Below are positions 2,648-31,653 of a stretch of 37,455 nucleotides of DNA, one piece after another. The stretch lies in UHGV virus genome UHGV-0248180; one strand, given 5' to 3'. This DNA comes from a virus. The stretch's first letter is position 1. Each line of letters begins with the position of its first letter. The notes under the pieces were generated by a model. The model had not been told where the DNA came from. It saw nothing but the letters and a program-made list of their open reading frames with translations, and did not search any database. A program made the translations under genes and the position numbers.

Positions 2648-3128
2648 TTTTAAAAACTCGCTGGTATGATTTAGATGATGGGGATGATGGCATTTCAGTT
2701 GATAGAGTTGACTGGAATGGCTGTTCCGAAGATATGAAAAATTTGCTGATTAGGGAGTTTAGAATGGGATATCAACCAGTTAAGCCATCTACTGCAACAG
2801 ATGATAAATTCGTGTGTATTCATAATGGTCGCGCTAAATTAACGAACACTGATTGGTTCACAGATAAGATTATGATTCTGTGGTATATTATTAGTTTTCC
2901 TGTGACATCATTTATATTTTGCTTCTTTGGAGAAAGTCCAGTAGACAGAACGGGAGATTGGATTATTTTAACCATACTTGTTAATATTTTTACAGCAGCA
3001 ATATTATCTGGGATATGGTACACGTTCATTGAAATGCCATGGCGTTTACGCAGACAGCAAAAGATTTATGATGAAAAGAAATATGCTCAAAATTTAAATA
3101 GCTTTATCACTGAATGCAGGAAATTAAA

Positions 3129-3132
<4 letters not shown>
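2644..3132 (+). CDS. hypothetical membrane protein (162 aa), C-terminal ITECRK motif
   Basis: ORF; ATGA overlap with upstream gene; hydrophobic segments. Confidence 0.55.
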
Positions 3133-4101
<969 letters not shown>

Positions 4102-4105
4102 AGTT

Positions 4106-4135
4106 GTTTACTTTCTCCTAAAACTGTGATAGTAT
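4106..4135 (+). promoter_or_regulatory. T4 early-type promoter (GTTTAC-N18-TGaTAGTAT)
   Basis: -35-like GTTTAC 4106-4111, extended -10 TGn + TAGTAT 4127-4135. Confidence 0.55.
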
Positions 4136-4172
4136 ATTCACAGTTACTAATTAAAATATTTAAAGGAAACAC

Positions 4173-4490
4173 ATGAAAACGTATAAAGAATTTATTGCAG
4201 AATCTGCTGCAGGACAACGTGTAGAAGGCGGTTATATCTGGATTGAACAAGTTGAGCCGCCAAGTCGCACTTCTACAGGTAAATGGAAAATCACTGTTGA
4301 TGGTCCTGGTGGTAAACGTAGGACTCTTAAAGAAATTAACGGGTACTATGAAGAAGCTCTTTCTGACGCGGGTACTTATATGATGCAAATCATGATTAAA
4401 AACCCAGAAAATCGTTTTGCGGCTAGAGTTTTCCGCCGTATTGGAAATAAGCTTTATGATGCATATTCTAAAAACTTCCCTAAAGAATAA
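4173..4490 (+). CDS. Capsid-targeted internal protein (105 aa) with N-terminal CTS MKTYKEFIAE
   Basis: N-terminal capsid targeting sequence typical of T-even internal proteins; located in the ip locus next to e. Confidence 0.75.
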   Translation: MKTYKEFIAESAAGQRVEGGYIWIEQVEPPSRTSTGKWKITVDGPGGKRRTLKEINGYYEEALSDAGTYMMQIMIKNPENRFAARVFRRIGNKLYDAYSKNFPKE

Positions 4491-4506
4491 AAATTAAAGG
4501 ATACAC

Positions 4507-4980
4507 ATGAAAACATATCAAGAATTTATTACTGAAGCAGCTATTAATTCTCAAATTATTGCTGAATCTTTTACTGATCTTTTGAAATTTAAAAAAGGAC
4601 AGAAAATCACTGCTGTATTGGATGACGGTACAGAAGTTGAGATGGATGTACAAGGATATAATTATGCAGTAGATGGAAAACTGTATAATAAATCTCATGC
4701 TAAATTTGATTCATTTGACGACTTTGTTAATACAGTTGAAGATGAAAAAACTCGTAGATCCATTGCAACGGGTGATGCTAAGGTTCTTATGGCACATGGC
4801 CATGAACGCATTCGCGCTAAGCAGAATAAAATGGGTGAAGATAATTTTGCATTAGTTGGTTATCAATCTGGTAAACAAACTTATGGTTATCAACGTACTG
4901 CTACCATGTATAACAAAAATGGTAAAATTGCCTTTGTGAATAGTAAAGGTTCTATTCAGTACGTCAAATCATTCAAATAA
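4507..4980 (+). CDS. Capsid-targeted internal protein (157 aa) with N-terminal CTS MKTYQEFITE
   Basis: CTS motif; leader and RBS nearly identical to the preceding ip gene. Confidence 0.75.
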   Translation: MKTYQEFITEAAINSQIIAESFTDLLKFKKGQKITAVLDDGTEVEMDVQGYNYAVDGKLYNKSHAKFDSFDDFVNTVEDEKTRRSIATGDAKVLMAHGHERIRAKQNKMGEDNFALVGYQSGKQTYGYQRTATMYNKNGKIAFVNSKGSIQYVKSFK

Positions 4981-5073
4981 TATGGGAACAACCTGGACCT
5001 TATGATTCTATAAGGGATTCCCGCCAACCTGTAATAAGGTCGAGCCTGAGTGCGGTAATGGGTAAATACAGAA

Positions 5074-5661
5074 ATGGACAATTCATGCGCCATGGAATGG
5101 CCCAAATTTAGAGAGAATAAAATGAGAACATTTTTAACTGGCCCGTATCTATCCCTGATGAATGCTTTTACACACCATTCTGATGCTAGAGTAGAAGAAA
5201 TTTGTAAAAACGAATATATCCCGCCATTTGAAGAATTACTTAAACAGTACTGCACACTTCGTATAGATGGTGGACGTCAATCCGGTAAATCAATTGCTGT
5301 GACTAACTTTGCTGCTAATTGGCTGTATGATGGCGGAACAGTTATTGTTCTTTCTAATACTTCAGCTTACGCTAAAATTTCTGCAAATAACATTAAAAAG
5401 GAATTTTCGCGTTATTCTAATGATGATATACGTTTTCGTTTATTTACTGATTCTGTGCGCAGTTTTATTGGTAATAAAGGAAGTAAGTTCAGAGGTTTAT
5501 CGCTTTCGCGAATTTTGTATATAATTGATGAGCCTGTCAAATCTCCTGATATGGATAAGATTTATAGCGTCCATATTGACACTGTACACTACTGCTGTAA
5601 TAGTAAATGTTGCATTGGTGGTATTACTCGTCCGCAGTTTTTCGTAATCGGAATGCAATGA
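5074..5661 (+). CDS. hypothetical P-loop NTPase-like protein (Walker A GGRQSGKS, Walker B-like ILYIIDEP)
   Basis: ORF; motifs read from translation; alternative start at ATG 5122; occupies the position where T4 carries denV. Confidence 0.55.
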   Translation: MDNSCAMEWPKFRENKMRTFLTGPYLSLMNAFTHHSDARVEEICKNEYIPPFEELLKQYCTLRIDGGRQSGKSIAVTNFAANWLYDGGTVIVLSNTSAYAKISANNIKKEFSRYSNDDIRFRLFTDSVRSFIGNKGSKFRGLSLSRILYIIDEPVKSPDMDKIYSVHIDTVHYCCNSKCCIGGITRPQFFVIGMQ

Positions 5662-5987
5662 TGACAGACACACAGCTTTTCGAATATCTTTATTTTTCGC
5701 CAAAAACTATTAAAAATAAATTGGTGAATCATTTTGAAATTTTGGCAAATAACAACATTTTGAGCGAATTTTATCCCAAGCAATACAAATTACAAAAAGG
5801 CGTATTCAAAGGATGCAGAGTTTTGTGTACTGCTCCTAACGCGCAGTTAATGAATAAAATTCCATATTTTACCATGGAATTTATTGATGGACCTTTTAAA
5901 GGACTAATCACCCAAAGTTTAATGGCATATGATTCTGAGCCATTTTTAATTAAAGAACAATCTTGGATAAATTTATTTTCTAATTGA
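5658..5987 (+). CDS. hypothetical protein (109 aa)
   Basis: ORF starting in an ATGATGA overlap with upstream stop. Confidence 0.5.
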
Positions 5988-5994
5988 GGTTTAT

Positions 5995-6357
5995 ATGAAA
6001 GCATATCAAATTCTTGAAGGCACACATAAAGGTACTATTTATTTTGAAGATGGTATTCAAGCACGAATTATTGTCTCTAAAACCTTTAAAGAGGACTCTT
6101 TTGTAGACCCAGAAATTTTCTATGGTTTGCATGCCCGTGAAATTGAAATTGAGCAACAGCCTACAGTTAAAATTGAAGGTGGTCAACACCTGAACGTTAA
6201 CGTTCTGCGTCGCGAAACTCTGGAAGATGCAGTTAAGCATCCGGAAAAATATCCGCAGCTGACCATCCGTGTATCCGGTTATGCAGTTCGCTTTAACTCT
6301 CTGACTCCGGAACAGCAGCGCGACGTTATTGCTCGTACCTTTACTGAGAGTTTGTAA
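5995..6357 (+). CDS. Autonomous glycyl-radical cofactor, GrcA/YfiD-like (120 aa)
   Basis: C-terminal ~65 aa ([60 protein letters not shown]) match E. coli GrcA as I recall it, including glycyl-radical motif RVSGY; codon usage of that segment is host-like. Confidence 0.9.
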
Positions 6358-6578
6358 TGGCAAAGATAATTATTGAAGGTTCTAAAGATGTGCTAAATGC
6401 TTTCGCCGAGTGGTTTAGTAATTCAGGCGAACAGCAATTTAATGAAGCGTGGAACATAGGTGATATTGATGGAATTTATCCTACGACAGAAATTTCTGTT
6501 CAGGGATATGGCATTCATGAACCTATTCGTTTAGTTGAATATGATTTATGTACTGGTGAGGAAGTCAAATATGATTGA
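6357..6578 (+). CDS. hypothetical protein (73 aa)
   Basis: ORF, TAATG overlap with upstream gene. Confidence 0.45.
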   Translation: MAKIIIEGSKDVLNAFAEWFSNSGEQQFNEAWNIGDIDGIYPTTEISVQGYGIHEPIRLVEYDLCTGEEVKYD

Positions 6579-6837
6579 AGATATTAAGGGTTATAAACCA
6601 CATACTGAAGAGAAAATCGGTAAAGTGAATGCTATTAAAGACGCTGAAGTTCGTTTAGGACTTATCTTTGACGCTTTATACGATGAATTCTGGGAAGCAC
6701 TAGATAATTGTGAAGATGATGAACTCGCGAAGAATTATGCTGAAAGCCTCGATCAGTTAACTATTGCTAAAACGAAACTCAAAGAAGCCAGTATGTGGGC
6801 TTGTCGTGCAGTGTTCCAACCAGAGGAAAAATACTAA
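6571..6837 (+). CDS. hypothetical protein (88 aa)
   Basis: ORF with GAGGAA RBS before ATG 6571. Confidence 0.45.
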
Positions 6838-7115
6838 TGGCTCAATTAAGTGCAGGGTTTGGTTATGAGTATTATACTGCACCTCGTCGTGTATCTGCCG
6901 CTCCTAAGAAAATTCAAAGTCTTGATGACTTCCAGGAAGTAGTCCGTAAAGCTTTTCAGGACTATGCACGTTATCTTAAAGAAGATTCACAGGACTGTCT
7001 CGAAGAAGATGAAATTGCTTACTATGAGCAGCGTCTTGAACAGCTTAAAAACTTACATGAGGTTCGTGCAGAAGTTTCAAAGTCTATGAATAAATTGATT
7101 AGATTTAAAGAATAA
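6837..7115 (+). CDS. hypothetical protein (92 aa)
   Basis: ORF, TAATG overlap. Confidence 0.5.
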
Positions 7116-7643: not shown

Positions 7644-8189
7644 ATGAGAAAAGCACTACTCGCTGGTCTATTGGCCATTTCAATGATGGCACATAGCTCC
7701 GAGCATACTTTCAGTAATGTCCAACTCGATAACATGCGTTACGCGTATCAATTCGGGGAACAATTTTCTAAGGATGGAAAATATAAAACACACAAAAATA
7801 TCCACAAGAGCGGATTAGGTCATATAATGGCTGCTATTTTATGGCAAGAAAGCTCTGGCGGAGTTAATTTAAAATCTAAACCAAAGCATCACGCCTATGG
7901 AATGTTCCAAAATTATTTGCCTACTATGCGAGCAAGAGTTAAGGAACTTGGTTATAATATGACCGATGCTGAAATAAAAAGAATGTTGAATAAACGGTCC
8001 AATTCAGCTTCCTGGGCGTACATTGAACTTTCTTATTGGTTAAATATACATAAGGGCGATATAAGAAAAGCAATATCCTCTTATAATTCGGGATGGAATG
8101 TTAAAGCAGGTTCTAAATATGCTTCTGAAGTCCTAGAAAAGGCTAATTACCTTAAAAATAATAAACTTTTGGAAATAGTAAATGACTAA
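7644..8189 (+). CDS. Secreted lytic transglycosylase-like protein (SLT domain), signal peptide
   Basis: N-terminal signal peptide; SLT motifs ES (ILWQESSGG), GMFQ (GLMQ-like), YNSG (AYNAG-like). Confidence 0.75.
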   Translation: MRKALLAGLLAISMMAHSSEHTFSNVQLDNMRYAYQFGEQFSKDGKYKTHKNIHKSGLGHIMAAILWQESSGGVNLKSKPKHHAYGMFQNYLPTMRARVKELGYNMTDAEIKRMLNKRSNSASWAYIELSYWLNIHKGDIRKAISSYNSGWNVKAGSKYASEVLEKANYLKNNKLLEIVND

Positions 8190-8523
8190 AATTTTGGTTT
8201 TATGTATAGGATTAATTTCATTTTCTGCGTTAGCAGATACATCATATACTGAAATTAGAGAATATGTAAACCGTACTGCAGCGGATTATTGCGGGAAAAA
8301 TAAAGCATGTCAAGCTGAATTTGCGCAGAAATTAATATATGCATATAAAGACGGAGAAAGAGATAAATCAAGCAGATACAAAAATGATACATTGTTAAAA
8401 CGATATGCTAAAAAGTGGAATACCTTAGAATGTTCAGTTGCGAAGGAGAAAGATAAAGCCGCTTGTCATTCAATGGTTGACCGTTTGGTAGATTCTTATA
8501 ATCGAGGATTGAGTACTAGATGA
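8182..8523 (+). CDS. vs: hypothetical protein with N-terminal signal-like segment; positional candidate for vs (valyl-tRNA synthetase modifier)
   Basis: Synteny (regB - vs.1 - vs in T4) and size only; sequence identity not verified. Confidence 0.45.
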   Translation: MTKILVLCIGLISFSALADTSYTEIREYVNRTAADYCGKNKACQAEFAQKLIYAYKDGERDKSSRYKNDTLLKRYAKKWNTLECSVAKEKDKAACHSMVDRLVDSYNRGLSTR

Positions 8524-8987
8524 TTGTAAAATATATCAAGGGCGATATTGTCGCCCTTTTCGCTGAAGGTAAAAATATTGCGCATGGATGCAATTGTTTT
8601 CATACTATGGGTTCAGGCGTAGCGGGTCAATTAACCAAAGCTTTCCCTAAAATTTTGGAAGCTGATAAATTACAGACTGAATGGGGTGATGTAACTAAAC
8701 TCGGTTCTTACTCAGTCTATGAAAAATACTTTAGGACTCATAAAGCGTATTGCTTCAACCTTTATACTCAATTTCAACCAGGGCCAAATTTTGAGTATTC
8801 CGCTTTAATGAATTGTATGTTAGAATTAAATGAGTTTGGTGAAAATAAACTGATTAAACCTACAATCTATATGCCTAGGATTGGTGCAGGCATAGGTAAA
8901 GGGAACTGGGATATTATTGAGGGGATTTTAGATACATATTCCTCTAAATTAGAAATTGTGATTGTTGATTGGGAACCGTTATTATGA
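8520..8987 (+). CDS. Macro-domain protein (putative ADP-ribose binding/hydrolase)
   Basis: Motifs HGCNCFHTMGSGVAGQ and PRIGAGIGKGNW resemble macro-domain diphosphate-binding loops (NAAN..GGGV and GIGTGIYG). Confidence 0.7.
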   Translation: MIVKYIKGDIVALFAEGKNIAHGCNCFHTMGSGVAGQLTKAFPKILEADKLQTEWGDVTKLGSYSVYEKYFRTHKAYCFNLYTQFQPGPNFEYSALMNCMLELNEFGENKLIKPTIYMPRIGAGIGKGNWDIIEGILDTYSSKLEIVIVDWEPLL

Positions 8988-13550: not shown

Positions 13551-13997
13551 ATGATTATTAATGAAAACTCTTGGCACGTTCGTATGCATGATTTCTTTTA
13601 CTGGCAGCGTCCGAATTCTTTGTGTAAATATTTCTGGAAAATGGCGTGGACGTTCTTAGTTATCGGTGTTATTTGCATATCGGGGCTATTAGGTAGTTGG
13701 GTGGTAGGACAAGCCATTTTAAGCCAATTTGGCGTTACAGGATTCTGGCTTCTACACGCAGGCGGAACCTTATTTGGTGTACTGATATTTGCTACGATTG
13801 TCATTATTGCAGTAGGTATAGCATATATTATAGCTAAGATTTCAGGTTTATGGGAAGGAGTCAGGTATGATAGAGAGTGGAAGCGTCAACAAGACGAAGA
13901 AAATGGTATTGAACATCCTAAGAGTGTAATCGTTGAATACCTTAAAGCTAGTAAATCTAAAATCTGCCCTATGATAGAATTTAAGGATGTTAAATGA
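13551..13997 (+). CDS. hypothetical integral membrane protein (148 aa)
   Basis: ORF; long hydrophobic segments (WTFLVIGVICISGLLGSWVV... GTLFGVLIFATIVIIAVGIAYII). Confidence 0.6.
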   Translation: MIINENSWHVRMHDFFYWQRPNSLCKYFWKMAWTFLVIGVICISGLLGSWVVGQAILSQFGVTGFWLLHAGGTLFGVLIFATIVIIAVGIAYIIAKISGLWEGVRYDREWKRQQDEENGIEHPKSVIVEYLKASKSKICPMIEFKDVK

Positions 13998-15004
13998 AAA
14001 CAGTAATGAAAAGTTATTTTGGTAGTCATCTTTATGGAACTTCTACCCCAGAATCTGATGTAGATTTTAAAGAAATCTTTGTTCCTCCTGCTCGCGATAT
14101 TCTTATCGGAAATGTTAAAGAGCATATGAGTAAAAACACTAACAACACATCATCTAAAAACACTAAAGATGATATTGACCATGAACTATACAGTCTTAAG
14201 TATTTCTTTAAATTAGCAGCAGATGGTGAAACTGTAGCATTGGATATGCTCCACACTCCACCTGAACTTGTAGTTAAATCTGATTTGCCTGATGTATGGA
14301 AGTTTATTCAAGACAACCGTTCTCGTTTTTATACGACTAACATGAAATCATATTTAGGATATGTCCGCAAGCAAGCTTCTAAATACGGTGTCAAGGGTTC
14401 TCGTTTGGCTGCATTACGTGATGTATTGAAAGTAGTTAATCAAATCCCCGAGCAATGGGTTGATTACCAAGAAGACGGTTCCATTAAGCAGCGTCGCACT
14501 AAAGTTGAAGATATTAAGCATCGTCTTCCAGAAAACGAATTCTGTGAATGGGTATTCCATAATCATGAGAAAACCGGTCCACAAACGTTCTACACTGTGT
14601 TGGGTCGTAAATATCAGACAACACTTTCTCTTATTGAGCTTAAGCAGTCTTTGAATAAACTTGATGCCGAATACGGTGAACGTGCTCGTAAGGCTGAAGC
14701 GAATGAGGGCATTGACTGGAAAGCTCTGAGTCATGCTTGCCGTGGTGGACTCCAACTATTGGAAATTTACAAAACTGGTGACTTGGTTTATCCACTCAAA
14801 GATGCTCCATTTATTCTCGACGTGAAGTTGGGTAAACATCCATTTAAAACGGTTCAAGAGTTTTTGGAAGATGTGGTCGATCAAGTAGAAGCAGCATCTA
14901 CTGAAGCTTCTAAGAACGGTATGCAGCAAAAAGTAGACATGGGTTTCTGGGATGACTTCCTTGAGAAGGTCTATCTTGAAAACCACCGAAGTTATTATAA
15001 ATGA
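13994..15004 (+). CDS. Predicted nucleotidyltransferase (Pol-beta-like fold), 336 aa
   Basis: N-terminal signature GSHLYGTSTPESDVDF (GS-x10-DxD); ATGA overlap; followed by strong terminator. Confidence 0.7.
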   Translation: MKTVMKSYFGSHLYGTSTPESDVDFKEIFVPPARDILIGNVKEHMSKNTNNTSSKNTKDDIDHELYSLKYFFKLAADGETVALDMLHTPPELVVKSDLPDVWKFIQDNRSRFYTTNMKSYLGYVRKQASKYGVKGSRLAALRDVLKVVNQIPEQWVDYQEDGSIKQRRTKVEDIKHRLPENEFCEWVFHNHEKTGPQTFYTVLGRKYQTTLSLIELKQSLNKLDAEYGERARKAEANEGIDWKALSHACRGGLQLLEIYKTGDLVYPLKDAPFILDVKLGKHPFKTVQEFLEDVVDQVEAASTEASKNGMQQKVDMGFWDDFLEKVYLENHRSYYK

Positions 15005-15006
15005 TA

Positions 15007-15031
15007 GGGAGCCTTCGGGCTCCCTTTTTTT
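15007..15031 (+). terminator. Rho-independent terminator (GGGAGCC-TTCG-GGCTCCC + T7)
   Basis: Perfect 7-bp GC-rich stem, UUCG loop, T tract. Confidence 0.85.
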
Positions 15032-15055
15032 ATTTCAAAAATTTTTCACAAAACT

Positions 15056-15085
15056 GTTTACAAGCATAAAGCTTTATGGTACTAT
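15056..15085 (+). promoter_or_regulatory. T4 early promoter (GTTTAC-N18-TGgTACTAT) with conserved leader ACAACTATCAACT
   Basis: GTTTAC 15056-15061; TGg TACTAT 15077-15085. Confidence 0.65.
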
Positions 15086-15119
15086 ACAACTATCAACTGA
15101 TACGGATTTGGAGAATAAA

Positions 15120-16088
15120 ATGAAAACTGTAACTATTAATAAGGGTATCTATTTCGGTAAAGAAATCTCTGGAACTTTTGAGCTCTTAGGCGAATGGTTC
15201 CCAGATAATGCTCCGGTAGATGCACAAGGAGATGGTAAAGTTTTTGTTGAAATTGACGGTAAACGTCGCGGTGTTTGGGTTTACAAATCCGATATTTCAT
15301 ATGATGGTGTAAAAGTTGAAGAAGTTAAAGAATCATATGAAGATATGAAAACCCGCATTAATAAAAGATTTAATGTTATGGGAATGATGACGAATGGTAT
15401 TATTAACGGAAACATTCGTTCATTAATTATCTCTGGTGCGGCAGGTATTGGTAAAACGTATTCTTTAGATAAAGCTTTAAATAAAGCAAATGATGTTGGA
15501 TACATTGAGTATAAAAGCATTAATGGTAAAATCTCTGGTATCGGTCTTTATGAGCAGCTCTGGAATAATCGTGAAGAGAATTCTGTCCTTTTGATTGATG
15601 ATGTGGATGTTTTCTCTGATATGGACATTCTTAATCTTCTAAAAGCTGCTCTGGACACTGGAGAGACCCGTAAAGTCTGCTGGAGCACTGCATCTTCTTA
15701 CTTAGAAGAAAAAGGCATTGACCGTGAGTTTGAATTTAAAGGAACGATTGTTTTTATCACAAACGTTGACATTGACCGCGAATTAGATCGCGGAACTAAA
15801 CTTGCTCCACACCTACAAGCATTAGTGTCCCGCTCAGTTTATTTAGATTTAGGTGTTCACACTAATGAAGAAATTATGGTCAGGGTTGAAGATGTTATTC
15901 TTTCAACTGACATGATGCAAAAGCGTGGTCTTTCTGATGAAGAAACTTATAAAGCATTATCATGGATGAAAGTTAATGTTAATCGTTTACGCAATGTTTC
16001 ACTGCGTACTGCTCTTTATCTTGCTGACTTTATTATGACCGACAAAAACGGTTGGGAAGAAATCGCTGAGGTTACTCTTCTGAAATAA
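15120..16088 (+). CDS. Predicted AAA+-type P-loop ATPase (322 aa)
   Basis: Walker A GAAGIGKT, Walker B VLLIDDVD, sensor-like FITN; GGAG RBS; track start 14952 reads through the promoter. Confidence 0.7.
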   Translation: MKTVTINKGIYFGKEISGTFELLGEWFPDNAPVDAQGDGKVFVEIDGKRRGVWVYKSDISYDGVKVEEVKESYEDMKTRINKRFNVMGMMTNGIINGNIRSLIISGAAGIGKTYSLDKALNKANDVGYIEYKSINGKISGIGLYEQLWNNREENSVLLIDDVDVFSDMDILNLLKAALDTGETRKVCWSTASSYLEEKGIDREFEFKGTIVFITNVDIDRELDRGTKLAPHLQALVSRSVYLDLGVHTNEEIMVRVEDVILSTDMMQKRGLSDEETYKALSWMKVNVNRLRNVSLRTALYLADFIMTDKNGWEEIAEVTLLK

Positions 16089-23654: not shown

Positions 23655-24128
23655 ATGTTATTGACTGGCAAATTATATAAAGAAGAAAAACAGAAATTTT
23701 ATGATGCACAAAACGGTAAATGTTTAATTTGCCAACGAGAACTAAATCCTGATGTTCAAGCTAATCATCTTGATCATGACCATGAATTAAATGGACCAAA
23801 AGCAGGAAAGGTACGTGGATTGCTTTGTAATCTCTGCAATGCCGCAGAAGGTCAAATGAAGCATAAATTTAATCGTTCTGGATTAAAGGGACAAGGTGTT
23901 GATTATCTTGAATGGTTAGAAAATTTACTTACTTATTTAAAATCCGATTACACCCAAAATAATATTCACCCTAACTTTGTTGGAGATAAATCAAAGGAAT
24001 TTTCTCGTTTAGGAAAAGAGGAAATGATGGCCGAGATGCTTCAAAGAGGATTTGAATATAATGAATCTGACACCAAAACACAGTTAATAGCTTCATTTAA
24101 GAAGCAGCTTAGAAAGAGTTTAAAATGA
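23655..24128 (+). CDS. 49: Endonuclease VII, Holliday junction resolvase (157 aa)
   Basis: Translation matches T4 gp49 from memory; zinc motif CLICQ..CNLC. Confidence 0.95.
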   Translation: MLLTGKLYKEEKQKFYDAQNGKCLICQRELNPDVQANHLDHDHELNGPKAGKVRGLLCNLCNAAEGQMKHKFNRSGLKGQGVDYLEWLENLLTYLKSDYTQNNIHPNFVGDKSKEFSRLGKEEMMAEMLQRGFEYNESDTKTQLIASFKKQLRKSLK

Positions 24129-25942
24129 CAATTGAAAAAGAAATTGAAGGATTGATTCATAAAACTAATAAAGACCTTTTAAACGAGAATGCTAATAAAG
24201 ATTCTCGTGTTTTTCCAACTCAACGGGACCTTATGGCTGGTATTGTGTCTAAACACATTGCCAAAAATATGGTCCCGTCTTTTATTATGAAAGCGCATGA
24301 AAGCGGAATTATTCATTTCCATGATATTGATTATTCCCCTGCTCTTCCATTTACTAATTGTTGTTTAGTAGATTTAAAAGGAATGCTTGAAAACGGATTT
24401 AAGCTTGGTAATGCACAGATTGAAACTCCTAAATCAATTGGCGTTGCTACTGCAATTATGGCGCAAATTACTGCGCAAGTTGCTTCCCATCAATACGGCG
24501 GAACGACTTTTGCGAATGTAGATAAAGTACTTTCTCCTTATGTTAAACGCACCTATGCAAAACATATTGAGGATGCAGAAAAATGGCAAATCGCTGATGC
24601 GTTGAATTATGCTCAATCTAAAACAGAAAAAGACGTATACGATGCATTTCAAGCTTATGAATATGAAGTAAACACTCTCTTTAGTTCAAACGGACAAACG
24701 CCTTTTGTAACAATTACATTTGGTACGGGAACTGACTGGACTGAACGAATGATTCAGAAAGCAATTCTGAAAAATCGTATTAAAGGTCTTGGTCGTGATG
24801 GGATAACTCCTATTTTCCCTAAGCTTGTTATGTTCGTTGAAGAAGGCGTTAATCTTTATAAAGACGATCCGAATTACGACATTAAGCAACTTGCTCTAGA
24901 GTGTGCAAGCAAAAGGATGTATCCTGATATTATTTCAGCTAAGAACAATAAAGCTATCACTGGTTCATCTGTTCCTGTTTCTCCAATGGGTTGCCGTAGT
25001 TTCTTGAGCGTATGGAAAGATTCGACTGGTAATGAAATTCTTGATGGACGTAATAATCTTGGTGTTGTAACACTGAATCTTCCTCGCATCGCGTTAGATT
25101 CTTATATTGGAACACAGTTCAATGAACAGAAATTTGCTGAATTATTCAATGAACGAATGGATTTATGTTTTGAAGCTTTGATGTGTAGAATTAGTTCCTT
25201 AAAAGGAGTTAAAGCTACTGTTGCTCCTATTCTTTACCAAGAAGGTGCATTCGGGGTTCGTCTTAAACCTGATGACGACATAATTGAGTTATTTAAAAAC
25301 GGTAGAAGTTCAGTGTCTTTAGGATACATTGGTATTCACGAATTGAATATTCTTGTCGGTCGTGATATTGGACGAGAAATTTTAACTAAAATGAATGCTC
25401 ATCTTAAACAGTGGACTGAAAGAACTGGATTTGCTTTTAGCTTGTATTCTACTCCCGCTGAAAACCTTTGTTATCGCTTCTGTAAACTTGATACTGAAAA
25501 ATATGGAAGTGTAAAAGATGTTACTGATAAAGGCTGGTACACTAATAGTTTCCATGTTTCAGTAGAAGAAAATATTACTCCGTTTGAAAAGATTTCTCGC
25601 GAAGCCCCATATCATTTCATTGCGACAGGTGGTCACATTTCTTATGTTGAACTTCCTGATATGAAAAATAACTTAAAAGGTCTTGAGGCCGTGTGGGATT
25701 ATGCTGCACAGCATTTAGATTATTTTGGTGTTAATATGCCAGTAGATAAGTGTTTTACATGCGGAAGTACCCATGAAATGACTCCTACTGAAAACGGATT
25801 TGTTTGTTCTATTTGTGGAGAAACTGATCCTAAAAAGATGAACACAATAAGAAGAACATGTGGTTATTTGGGAAATCCGAACGAGCGCGGATTTAATCTT
25901 GGCAAAAATAAAGAAATCATGCATAGGGTTAAACACCAATGA
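24125..25942 (+). CDS. nrdD: Anaerobic ribonucleoside-triphosphate reductase NrdD (class III), 605 aa, uninterrupted
   Basis: C-terminal glycyl-radical motif RRTCGYLG and zinc ribbon CFTCGS..CSICG. Confidence 0.95.
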   Translation: MTIEKEIEGLIHKTNKDLLNENANKDSRVFPTQRDLMAGIVSKHIAKNMVPSFIMKAHESGIIHFHDIDYSPALPFTNCCLVDLKGMLENGFKLGNAQIETPKSIGVATAIMAQITAQVASHQYGGTTFANVDKVLSPYVKRTYAKHIEDAEKWQIADALNYAQSKTEKDVYDAFQAYEYEVNTLFSSNGQTPFVTITFGTGTDWTERMIQKAILKNRIKGLGRDGITPIFPKLVMFVEEGVNLYKDDPNYDIKQLALECASKRMYPDIISAKNNKAITGSSVPVSPMGCRSFLSVWKDSTGNEILDGRNNLGVVTLNLPRIALDSYIGTQFNEQKFAELFNERMDLCFEALMCRISSLKGVKATVAPILYQEGAFGVRLKPDDDIIELFKNGRSSVSLGYIGIHELNILVGRDIGREILTKMNAHLKQWTERTGFAFSLYSTPAENLCYRFCKLDTEKYGSVKDVTDKGWYTNSFHVSVEENITPFEKISREAPYHFIATGGHISYVELPDMKNNLKGLEAVWDYAAQHLDYFGVNMPVDKCFTCGSTHEMTPTENGFVCSICGETDPKKMNTIRRTCGYLGNPNERGFNLGKNKEIMHRVKHQ

Positions 25943-30450: not shown

Positions 30451-31653
30451 ATGAAAGTATGCATTTTTATGGCTCGAGGTCTTGAAGGTTGCGGTGTAAC
30501 TAAATTTTCTCTTGAGCAACGTGATTGGTTTATTAAAAATGGTCATGAAGTGACTTTGGTTTATGCTAAAGATAAATCATTTACTCGTAATTGCGCGCAT
30601 GATTATAAATCATTTTCAATTCCGGTTTTATTGGCAAAAGAATACGATAAAACACTTAAGCTGGTAAATGATTGTGATATTCTAATTATCAATTCAGTTC
30701 CTGCTACTTCGGTTGAAGAAGACACTATTAATAACTATAAAAAAATTATTGATAACATTAAACCTTCTGTTCGTGTTGTAGTTTATCAGCATGACCATTC
30801 TTCTCTTTCTTTGCGTCGAAATTTGGGATTAGAAGAAACTGTTCGTCGAGCTGATGTTATTTTTAGTCATTCTGATAATGGTGATTTTAATAAAGTTCTG
30901 ATGAAAGAATGGTATCCAGAAACTGTTTCTCTGTTTGATGATATTGAAGAAGCACCGACAGTATATAACTTTCAGCCTCCTATGGATATTGCGAAGGTTC
31001 GGTCAACTTACTGGAAAGATGTTTCTGAAATTAACATGAATATCAACCGTTGGATTGGTCGTACGACTACATGGAAAGGTTTTTATCAGATGTTTGATTT
31101 TCACGAAAAACATCTTAAACCTGCAGGACTAAGTACTATTATGGAAGGTCTGGAACGTTCTCCAGCGTTCATTCCTATTAAAGAAAAAGGAATTCCATAC
31201 GAGTATTATCGTCTTCATCAAGTAGACCAAATTAAAATTGCTCCTAATTTGCCAACACAAATTCTTGACCGTTATGTAAATAGCGAAATGCTTGAACGCA
31301 TGAGTAAATCCGGTTTTGGTTATCAGCTGAGTAAGTTGGATAAAAAATATCTACAGCGCTCTTTAGAATATACTCATCTCGAGCTTGGTGCATGTGGAAC
31401 AATTCCAGTATTTTGGAAATCTACTGGCGAAAATTTAAAATTCCGTGTTGATAATACTCCTTTGACCTCGCATGATAGCGGTATCATTTGGTTTGATGAA
31501 AATGATATGGAATCAACATTTGAACGTATTAAAGAACTGTCATCTGACCGAACTCTTTATGACCGCGAACGTGAAAAAGCTTATGAATTTTTGTATCAGC
31601 ATCAAGATTCAAGCTTCTGCTTTAAAGAACAGTTTGACATTATTACAAAATAA
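30451..31653 (+). CDS. a-gt: DNA alpha-glucosyltransferase (400 aa)
   Basis: Translation matches T4 alpha-glucosyltransferase from memory (400 aa). Confidence 0.93.
   Translation: MKVCIFMARGLEGCGVTKFSLEQRDWFIKNGHEVTLVYAKDKSFTRNCAHDYKSFSIPVLLAKEYDKTLKLVNDCDILIINSVPATSVEEDTINNYKKIIDNIKPSVRVVVYQHDHSSLSLRRNLGLEETVRRADVIFSHSDNGDFNKVLMKEWYPETVSLFDDIEEAPTVYNFQPPMDIAKVRSTYWKDVSEINMNINRWIGRTTTWKGFYQMFDFHEKHLKPAGLSTIMEGLERSPAFIPIKEKGIPYEYYRLHQVDQIKIAPNLPTQILDRYVNSEMLERMSKSGFGYQLSKLDKKYLQRSLEYTHLELGACGTIPVFWKSTGENLKFRVDNTPLTSHDSGIIWFDENDMESTFERIKELSSDRTLYDREREKAYEFLYQHQDSSFCFKEQFDIITK

Follow-up and report, generated by a model that had tools for sequence, protein, structure and literature searches.

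Gene order and transcription signals at the locus

The DNA analysed here, a single stretch of 37,455 nucleotides that we call the window, is part of the genome of a T4-like phage (Tequatrovirus). Its lysozyme gene e (3607-4101, + strand) forms the conserved left flank of an internal-protein locus, with 94% nucleotide identity to T4 and T2 over the flank. Downstream of e, on the same strand, lie ORF1 (4173-4490), a putative internal head protein precursor of the Ip10 family, and ORF2 (4507-4980), the putative Ip4 precursor. These are followed by a 141-nt spacer and the homologues of vs.8, vs.7 and vs.6. The placement of the two ORFs between e and denV/vs.8 was established by synteny with T4, T2, RB69 and VR25, and the junctions were located by blastn. 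ORF1 and ORF2 encode 105 and 157 residues, lie on the + strand at the positions given in the preliminary description, and each opens with a T-even capsid targeting sequence (CTS), MKTYKEFIAE in ORF1 and MKTYQEFITE in ORF2.

The start regions of the two genes form a direct repeat of 54 nt, the copies of which are 83% identical and 334 nt apart, so that the near-identical leader and ribosome-binding site noted earlier are indeed present. Copy 1 (4155-4208, + strand) contains AAGGA at 4163-4167, the ATG at 4173 and the ten CTS codons at 4173-4202; in copy 2 (4489-4542, + strand) the corresponding elements are at 4497-4501, 4507 and 4507-4536.

Two exact copies of the T4 late-promoter motif (TATAAATA; 3573-3580 and 3586-3593, + strand) are located upstream of e and are the likely origin of late transcripts reading through e, ORF1 and ORF2. 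Such read-through is plausible because the late motifs precede e and an intrinsic-terminator prediction over 3500-5300, which extends past the end of ORF2, found nothing. A sequence resembling an early-type T4 promoter lies between e and ORF1 (4106-4135, + strand) and consists of GTTTAC, an 18-nt spacer that includes TGa, and TAGTAT. The same motifs occur at the corresponding place upstream of ipIII in T4. This sequence was not among the promoters listed by a generic sigma-70 scan; it is a putative promoter by its resemblance to T4 early promoters.

At the right-hand side, homology to T4 resumes at the junction and continues through the conserved spacer ahead of the vs.8 homologue (4980-5121, + strand). 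The spacer (4981-5121) was also checked for a structured RNA, a reading that was rejected: Rfam gave no match, no tRNA was found, and folding yielded a z-score of 0.37.

Capsid targeting sequences and predicted processing

When the six-frame translation of the 37.4-kb window was searched with a strict CTS pattern, M[KR][TS][YF]x[ED][FYL][ILV]xE, exactly two matches were found, and these are the starts of ORF1 and ORF2. The number expected by chance from residue frequencies is about 3e-4, and 300 shuffles gave no match. Mutagenesis has shown which CTS residues matter, targeting depending on Y4 and F7 and processing on I8 and E10 (PMC9026906); all four residues are intact in both ORFs. At the nucleotide level the CTS segment is far more conserved than what surrounds it. 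Across 60 distinct gene starts, the majority base accounts for a fraction of 0.76-1.00 over the first 30 coding nucleotides, falling to about 0.45 after +31 and to about 0.4 beyond 25 nt upstream.

The prohead protease gp21 cuts according to an L/I-X-E rule, and propeptides are 10-19 residues long (PMC9026906). Motifs of this kind are present in ORF1 as IAE10/S and in ORF2 as ITE10/A and IAE20/S, the slash marking the predicted cut. Within the Ip4 family (14 sequences) both E10 and E20 are invariant, and the second site has Ile, Leu or Met at P3 and is followed by Ser or Ala. This second predicted site resembles that of T4 IPI, the 19-residue propeptide of which ends in ITE19/A, and residues 10-20 are disordered in the AlphaFold model of ORF2. 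Cleavage of ORF1 after E10 would yield a mature protein of 95 aa (10.8 kDa, pI 9.6). The predicted mature form of ORF2 would be 147 or 137 aa, that is 16.5 or 15.5 kDa, with a pI of 9.1-9.3. The mature forms of ORF1 and ORF2 are as basic as those of IPII and IPIII.

Ten CTS residues alone are enough for foreign proteins to be packaged in T4 heads and then delivered to the host (PMC9026906, PMC3012670). From these features we infer that the products of ORF1 and ORF2 are probably packed in the capsid and injected with the DNA. Their precursors would enter the scaffolding core of the prohead by means of the first ten residues, and gp21 would remove the CTS after Glu10, probably with a second cut after Glu20 in Ip4. 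The basic mature proteins would remain with the packaged DNA and pass into the host cell alongside it.

Family membership and cassette exchange

Judged from profile and pairwise comparisons, ORF1 is a member of the Ip10 family, already known and not new. It matches phrog_3966 over the full length of the profile (E 5.8e-34) and, again over its full length, shows 70% identity to the Ip10 of Shigella phage SP18 and 72% to that of Escherichia phage VR25, both so named in their annotations; proteins of Enterobacter and Cronobacter phages are approximately 50% identical. With the Ip10 of SP18 and VR25 it shares the CTS, the body family and the e-to-vs.8 location. The window, however, carries the Tequatrovirus allele, and the neighbouring gene differs, being Ip4 in the window and an 87-aa internal protein together with Ip7 in VR25. 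The family is found in 190 phage records, of which 132 are at least 95% identical to ORF1. It appears to be narrow and confined to these phages, since just two genuine clusters, both from phages, came back when 1.84 billion representative proteins were searched exhaustively with the family profile.

Three further matches in that search were rejected as repeat artefacts. They are giant proteins (982-3814 aa, with 9-24 matched stretches) that belong to coiled-coil (FAZ1) or TIG repeat proteins according to Pfam and that match many unrelated families equally piecemeal. A bacterial copy of ORF1 was considered and is unlikely from the six contexts inspected, each of which was the entire genome of a T4-like phage (about 167-169 kb). 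The longest contig listed for the cluster containing ORF1 is 489 kb, and the cluster also carries a source name from an E. coli assembly; this contig may be an assembly chimera.

ORF2 can be identified, again by sequence, as the Ip4 of T2 and of hundreds of other phages, and it too is not new. Pfam DUF7412 covers residues 1-157 of 157 with 319.4 bits (gathering cut-off 27; E 6e-96), and the protein also falls in phrog_3155, 'internal virion protein'. T2, RB5, Shigella phage Shfl2 (where the protein is annotated Ip4) and GiZh (annotated ipIV) all have a mature region with 100% identity to that of ORF2, and nothing substantial distinguishes ORF2 from the Ip4 of T2, Shfl2 and GiZh. Ip4 is present in 471 records of the phage collection, and in 292 of these the identity is at least 99%; more distant copies (61-82% identity) are carried by phages of Klebsiella, Salmonella and Serratia. 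In the same phage collection the body of T4 IPIII is found in 261 records. Thus the two genes, which the preliminary description had regarded as new variants, are both established ones, and with at least 80% of the e-ORF1-ORF2-spacer region covered in 114 phage records, the pair is an already catalogued cassette, present in more than 100 sequenced phages, and no new kind of element. Two of the phages with this cassette, Bas40 FelixPlatter and 310Ecol104PP, are each 98.8% identical to the window at this place. Annotations of the pair vary among 'hypothetical', 'internal virion protein' and, wrongly, 'IpII/IpIII'.

The earlier statement that the two proteins differ from T4 IPIII and IPII holds, and neither is identical to them. 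BLASTP aligns the first 11-13 residues alone; a longer alignment between ORF2 and IPII is driven by the CTS and is lost once the first 12 residues are removed, and the bodies fall in separate clusters. Of the T4 lengths given there, 100 aa is correct for IPII, and the 194 aa stated for IPIII should read 193 aa.

Both ORFs are real genes under purifying selection. The ratio dN/dS is 0.26 for ORF1 (against VR25 ip10) and 0.13 for ORF2 (against Ip4 of a Salmonella phage), and that of the adjacent lysozyme gene e, calculated for comparison, is 0.09-0.17. AlphaFold2 modelling gave confidence in the moderate-to-good range. The model of ORF1 (pLDDT 83, pTM 0.74) runs from three strands through a long helix to two further strands; that of ORF2 (pLDDT 76, pTM 0.71) has a beta-hairpin core, three helices and four strands. 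No convincing match to a known fold was obtained for either predicted structure, and neither protein showed homology or fold similarity to the characterised inhibitors Ip1, Ip2 and Ip3. Profile scans detected no enzymatic or known binding domain in ORF1 or ORF2, and scans of both with PADLOC and NCBIfam gave nothing meaningful.

Alignment with T4 and T2 defines how the locus was assembled. The order in T4 is e, ipIII, ipII, denV, vs.8. The window and T4 are homologous at the nucleotide level in e, the promoter-like sequence, the leader and the CTS; the homology ends at 4212 (codon 13 of ORF1) and restarts at 4980, exactly at the end of T4 denV; between these points the 45-nt leader/CTS repeats alone match. 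These breakpoints indicate that ORF1 and ORF2 contribute their bodies in place of those of ipIII and ipII and of the entire denV gene, which encodes endonuclease V for pyrimidine-dimer repair. T2 aligns with the window at 3103-4208 and at 4494-7000. In T2 ip4 directly follows e, whereas in the window ORF1 lies in between, and from the two alignment blocks the window is the T2 arrangement plus one 334-nt unit (ORF1) inserted between two leader/CTS repeats. The extra unit is the footprint expected of recombination between these repeats.

The same kind of exchange is seen on a wider scale. Among 29 Tevenvirinae loci around e, 65 ORFs open with a CTS, and behind the same 30-nt CTS there are 13 unrelated body families (clustered at E 1e-5 after removal of the first 12 residues). 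Each phage has one to four CTS genes downstream of e, in differing combinations; three of these loci (L001, L002 and L008) also have that of ORF1 and ORF2, as do six more phage genomes. The variability of the locus is whole-cassette replacement and not fast sequence change, the latter being at odds with the low dN/dS of the two genes. The hypervariability described earlier for the locus needs correcting to this extent. The denV gene takes part in the exchange. It is absent from the window and, at this place, from T2; in T4 it follows ipII, and some other phages with the same two internal-protein genes have it between e and ORF1. This difference in presence and position means that denV behaves as a mobile cassette at the locus. 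In RB69 the ORF1 homologue, ORF124c (2459-2842 in that locus, L005), has 86% nucleotide identity, compared with 71-80% for the flanking e and vs genes, which suggests exchange between genera. The pair found in the window probably arose by cassette exchange, with recombination between leader/CTS repeats swapping whole bodies in and out between e and vs.8.

The annotation of ORF124c in RB69 is shorter by 15 residues and its alignment is split in two, so that a frameshift may be present. Two more CTS families occur in close relatives (L007-L009, positions 300-1500), about 4-4.7 kb upstream of e. These proteins are 157 aa (MKSYAQFLNE...) and 187 aa (MKTYAEFLTE...) in length and are possibly encoded at the counterpart of the ipI locus; the window begins past this place.

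Possible targets of the putative injected proteins

[quoted passage not shown] Ip1, Ip2 and Ip3 each inhibit one GmrSD subtype; Ip2 inhibits the GmrSD (BrxU) of ECOR21 and Ip3 the two-gene GmrSD of ECOR17, and there is no cross-protection (PMC12373910). The result for Ip1 bears out the earlier remark that IPI is an inhibitor of type IV restriction. IPIII is needed on ECOR17 and is active in the cytoplasm without its CTS (PMC9391042), and the CTS protein Bas37_0260 protects against restriction by McrBC (bioRxiv 10.1101/2025.11.20.689424). Type IV restriction is thus inhibited by all four small CTS proteins characterised (PMC12373910; bioRxiv 10.1101/2025.11.20.689424; PMC9391042). The phage studied here is a glucosyl-hydroxymethylcytosine T4-like phage of the genus Tequatrovirus. 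Since the window encodes a DNA alpha-glucosyltransferase (30451-31653, E 4e-237), its DNA is a substrate for enzymes of the GmrSD type.

The best explanation, to which we give moderate confidence, is that ORF1 and ORF2 encode T-even internal head proteins that are packaged and injected and that most likely act against a variant of type IV restriction. In the host cell each would neutralise a specific first-line defence, most likely a variant of a modification-dependent (type IV) restriction enzyme. The candidate role as injected anti-defence proteins proposed in the preliminary description fits the current literature in this respect (PMC12373910); the novelty attached to it does not.

Published data narrow the range of such targets. 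When ip4-10 were assayed against a panel of active GmrSD variants, no reproducible inhibition was observed (PMC12373910, section 10, Supplementary Fig. 9), the constructs being equated here with ORF1 and ORF2 by gene name and not by sequence. T2 is restricted by the GmrSD of CT596, ECOR21 and ECOR17 (PMC12373910; PMC4437046, Table 3), and since this occurs despite an Ip4 whose mature region is identical to that of ORF2, Ip4 gives no protection against those three enzymes. If the targets of ORF1 and ORF2 are type IV enzymes, they are therefore variants outside those tested so far. We found no published virion proteomics or genetics for the two proteins in the literature consulted.

The negative panel also bears on what else the proteins could do. 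They could be packaged and act within the particle, where as basic counter-ions or scaffold-core helpers they would assist in assembling the head or in condensing or ejecting the DNA and would have no particular target in the host. The basic pI of the predicted mature forms (9.1-9.6) would suit this role, as would the slower head assembly and smaller burst of T4 IPIII mutants, the co-purification of internal proteins with gp22 (PMC9026906) and the lack of a target for ip4-10 in the GmrSD panel (PMC12373910). However, a generic job leaves it unexplained that the locus exchanges 13 folded bodies which are unrelated to one another and each conserved. T4 without all three internal proteins grows on laboratory strains (PMC9026906), and each of the three has since been assigned a specific host target (PMC12373910); we regard a role confined to the particle as quite unlikely. 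That the proteins are not packaged at all, the CTS being a mere inherited remnant on ordinary cytoplasmic accessory proteins, seems highly improbable. Nothing in the sequence supports it, every functionally mapped CTS position is conserved, far above the surroundings in the 60 distinct gene starts, and ten residues alone suffice for packaging in T4 (PMC9026906).

The proteins could instead be injected effectors directed at something other than type IV restriction, either another first-response defence or host take-over, as with the packaged ADP-ribosyltransferase Alt. Alt is not a restriction inhibitor (PMC9026906), and the negative GmrSD panel and the sensitivity of T2 to three GmrSD variants though it carries Ip4 (PMC12373910) point in the same direction, as does the presence nearby of other counter-defence genes, an Acb2-type sponge (6571-6837) and a Macro-domain protein. 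The absence of an enzymatic or known binding domain from both ORFs argues against such effectors, as does the fact that every small CTS protein characterised so far targets type IV restriction, and we consider this reading unlikely, though less so than a role inside the particle. A further reading, put forward tentatively, is that one or both of Ip4 and the Ip10-type protein, once injected, inhibit some host defence other than the GmrSD variants assayed so far. That defence could be a modification-dependent nuclease of another class, or a first-response system of a non-nuclease kind. Ip4 and the Ip10-type protein are widely inherited together in Tequatrovirus, which might mean that they act jointly on a single target.

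Action against a type IV enzyme, which we favour, has close parallels among known phage proteins. [quoted passage not shown] Like ORF1 and ORF2 they have a CTS and a basic mature form, and presumably they are packaged and injected in the same manner, but their bodies are unrelated; IPIII inhibits ECOR17 GmrS1/GmrSD2 and IPII the ECOR21 GmrSD (BrxU) (PMC12373910). T4 IPI (IPI*), the inhibitor of the GmrSD of E. coli CT596, is also an injected protein with a CTS-type propeptide (PMC3012670). Bas37_0260 has the same N-terminal signal and follows the same logic of an injected type IV inhibitor, its loss leading to McrBC sensitivity (bioRxiv 10.1101/2025.11.20.689424); it differs in being encoded at the ipI locus. 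The Dar proteins of phage P1 are also packaged in the capsid and have anti-restriction roles (PMC12810830), but they are unrelated proteins and the analogy is functional only, the name Dar denoting defence against restriction generally and not against type IV enzymes specifically.

The targets of Ip4 and of the Ip10 family are worth finding. Ip4 is carried by the classic phage T2 and, in the phage collection searched, is commoner than T4 IPIII. Its target and that of Ip10 would add to what is known of which internal protein counters which type IV restriction enzyme, and could be of use in predicting the host range of therapeutic T4-like phages.

Several neighbouring genes in the window were noted in passing. 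The vs.4 homologue (6571-6837, + strand), 1.6 kb downstream of the internal-protein pair, matches Pfam Acb2_Tad1_hairpin (E 8e-20) and is of the Acb2 type, a family of anti-CBASS sponges. The vs.8 homologue (5122-5661, + strand; phrog_1488) gave weak matches of the P-loop type (the large terminase ATPase region of phrog_2, E 6e-6; AAA_14; HerA); the T4 annotation of this gene has 40 additional N-terminal residues. The vs.6 homologue (5995-6357, + strand) resembles the autonomous glycyl radical cofactor GrcA (Pfam Gly_radical, E 2.5e-18), and the anaerobic ribonucleotide reductase NrdD is also encoded in the window (24125-25942). Downstream of regB are a protein with an SLT-like transglycosylase domain (7644-8189, + strand; the vs.1 homologue) and the Macro-domain protein (8520-8987, + strand). 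An RlaP-like nucleotidyltransferase gene (13994-15004, + strand) overlaps that of an ATPase with weak AAA/STAND matches (14952-16088).
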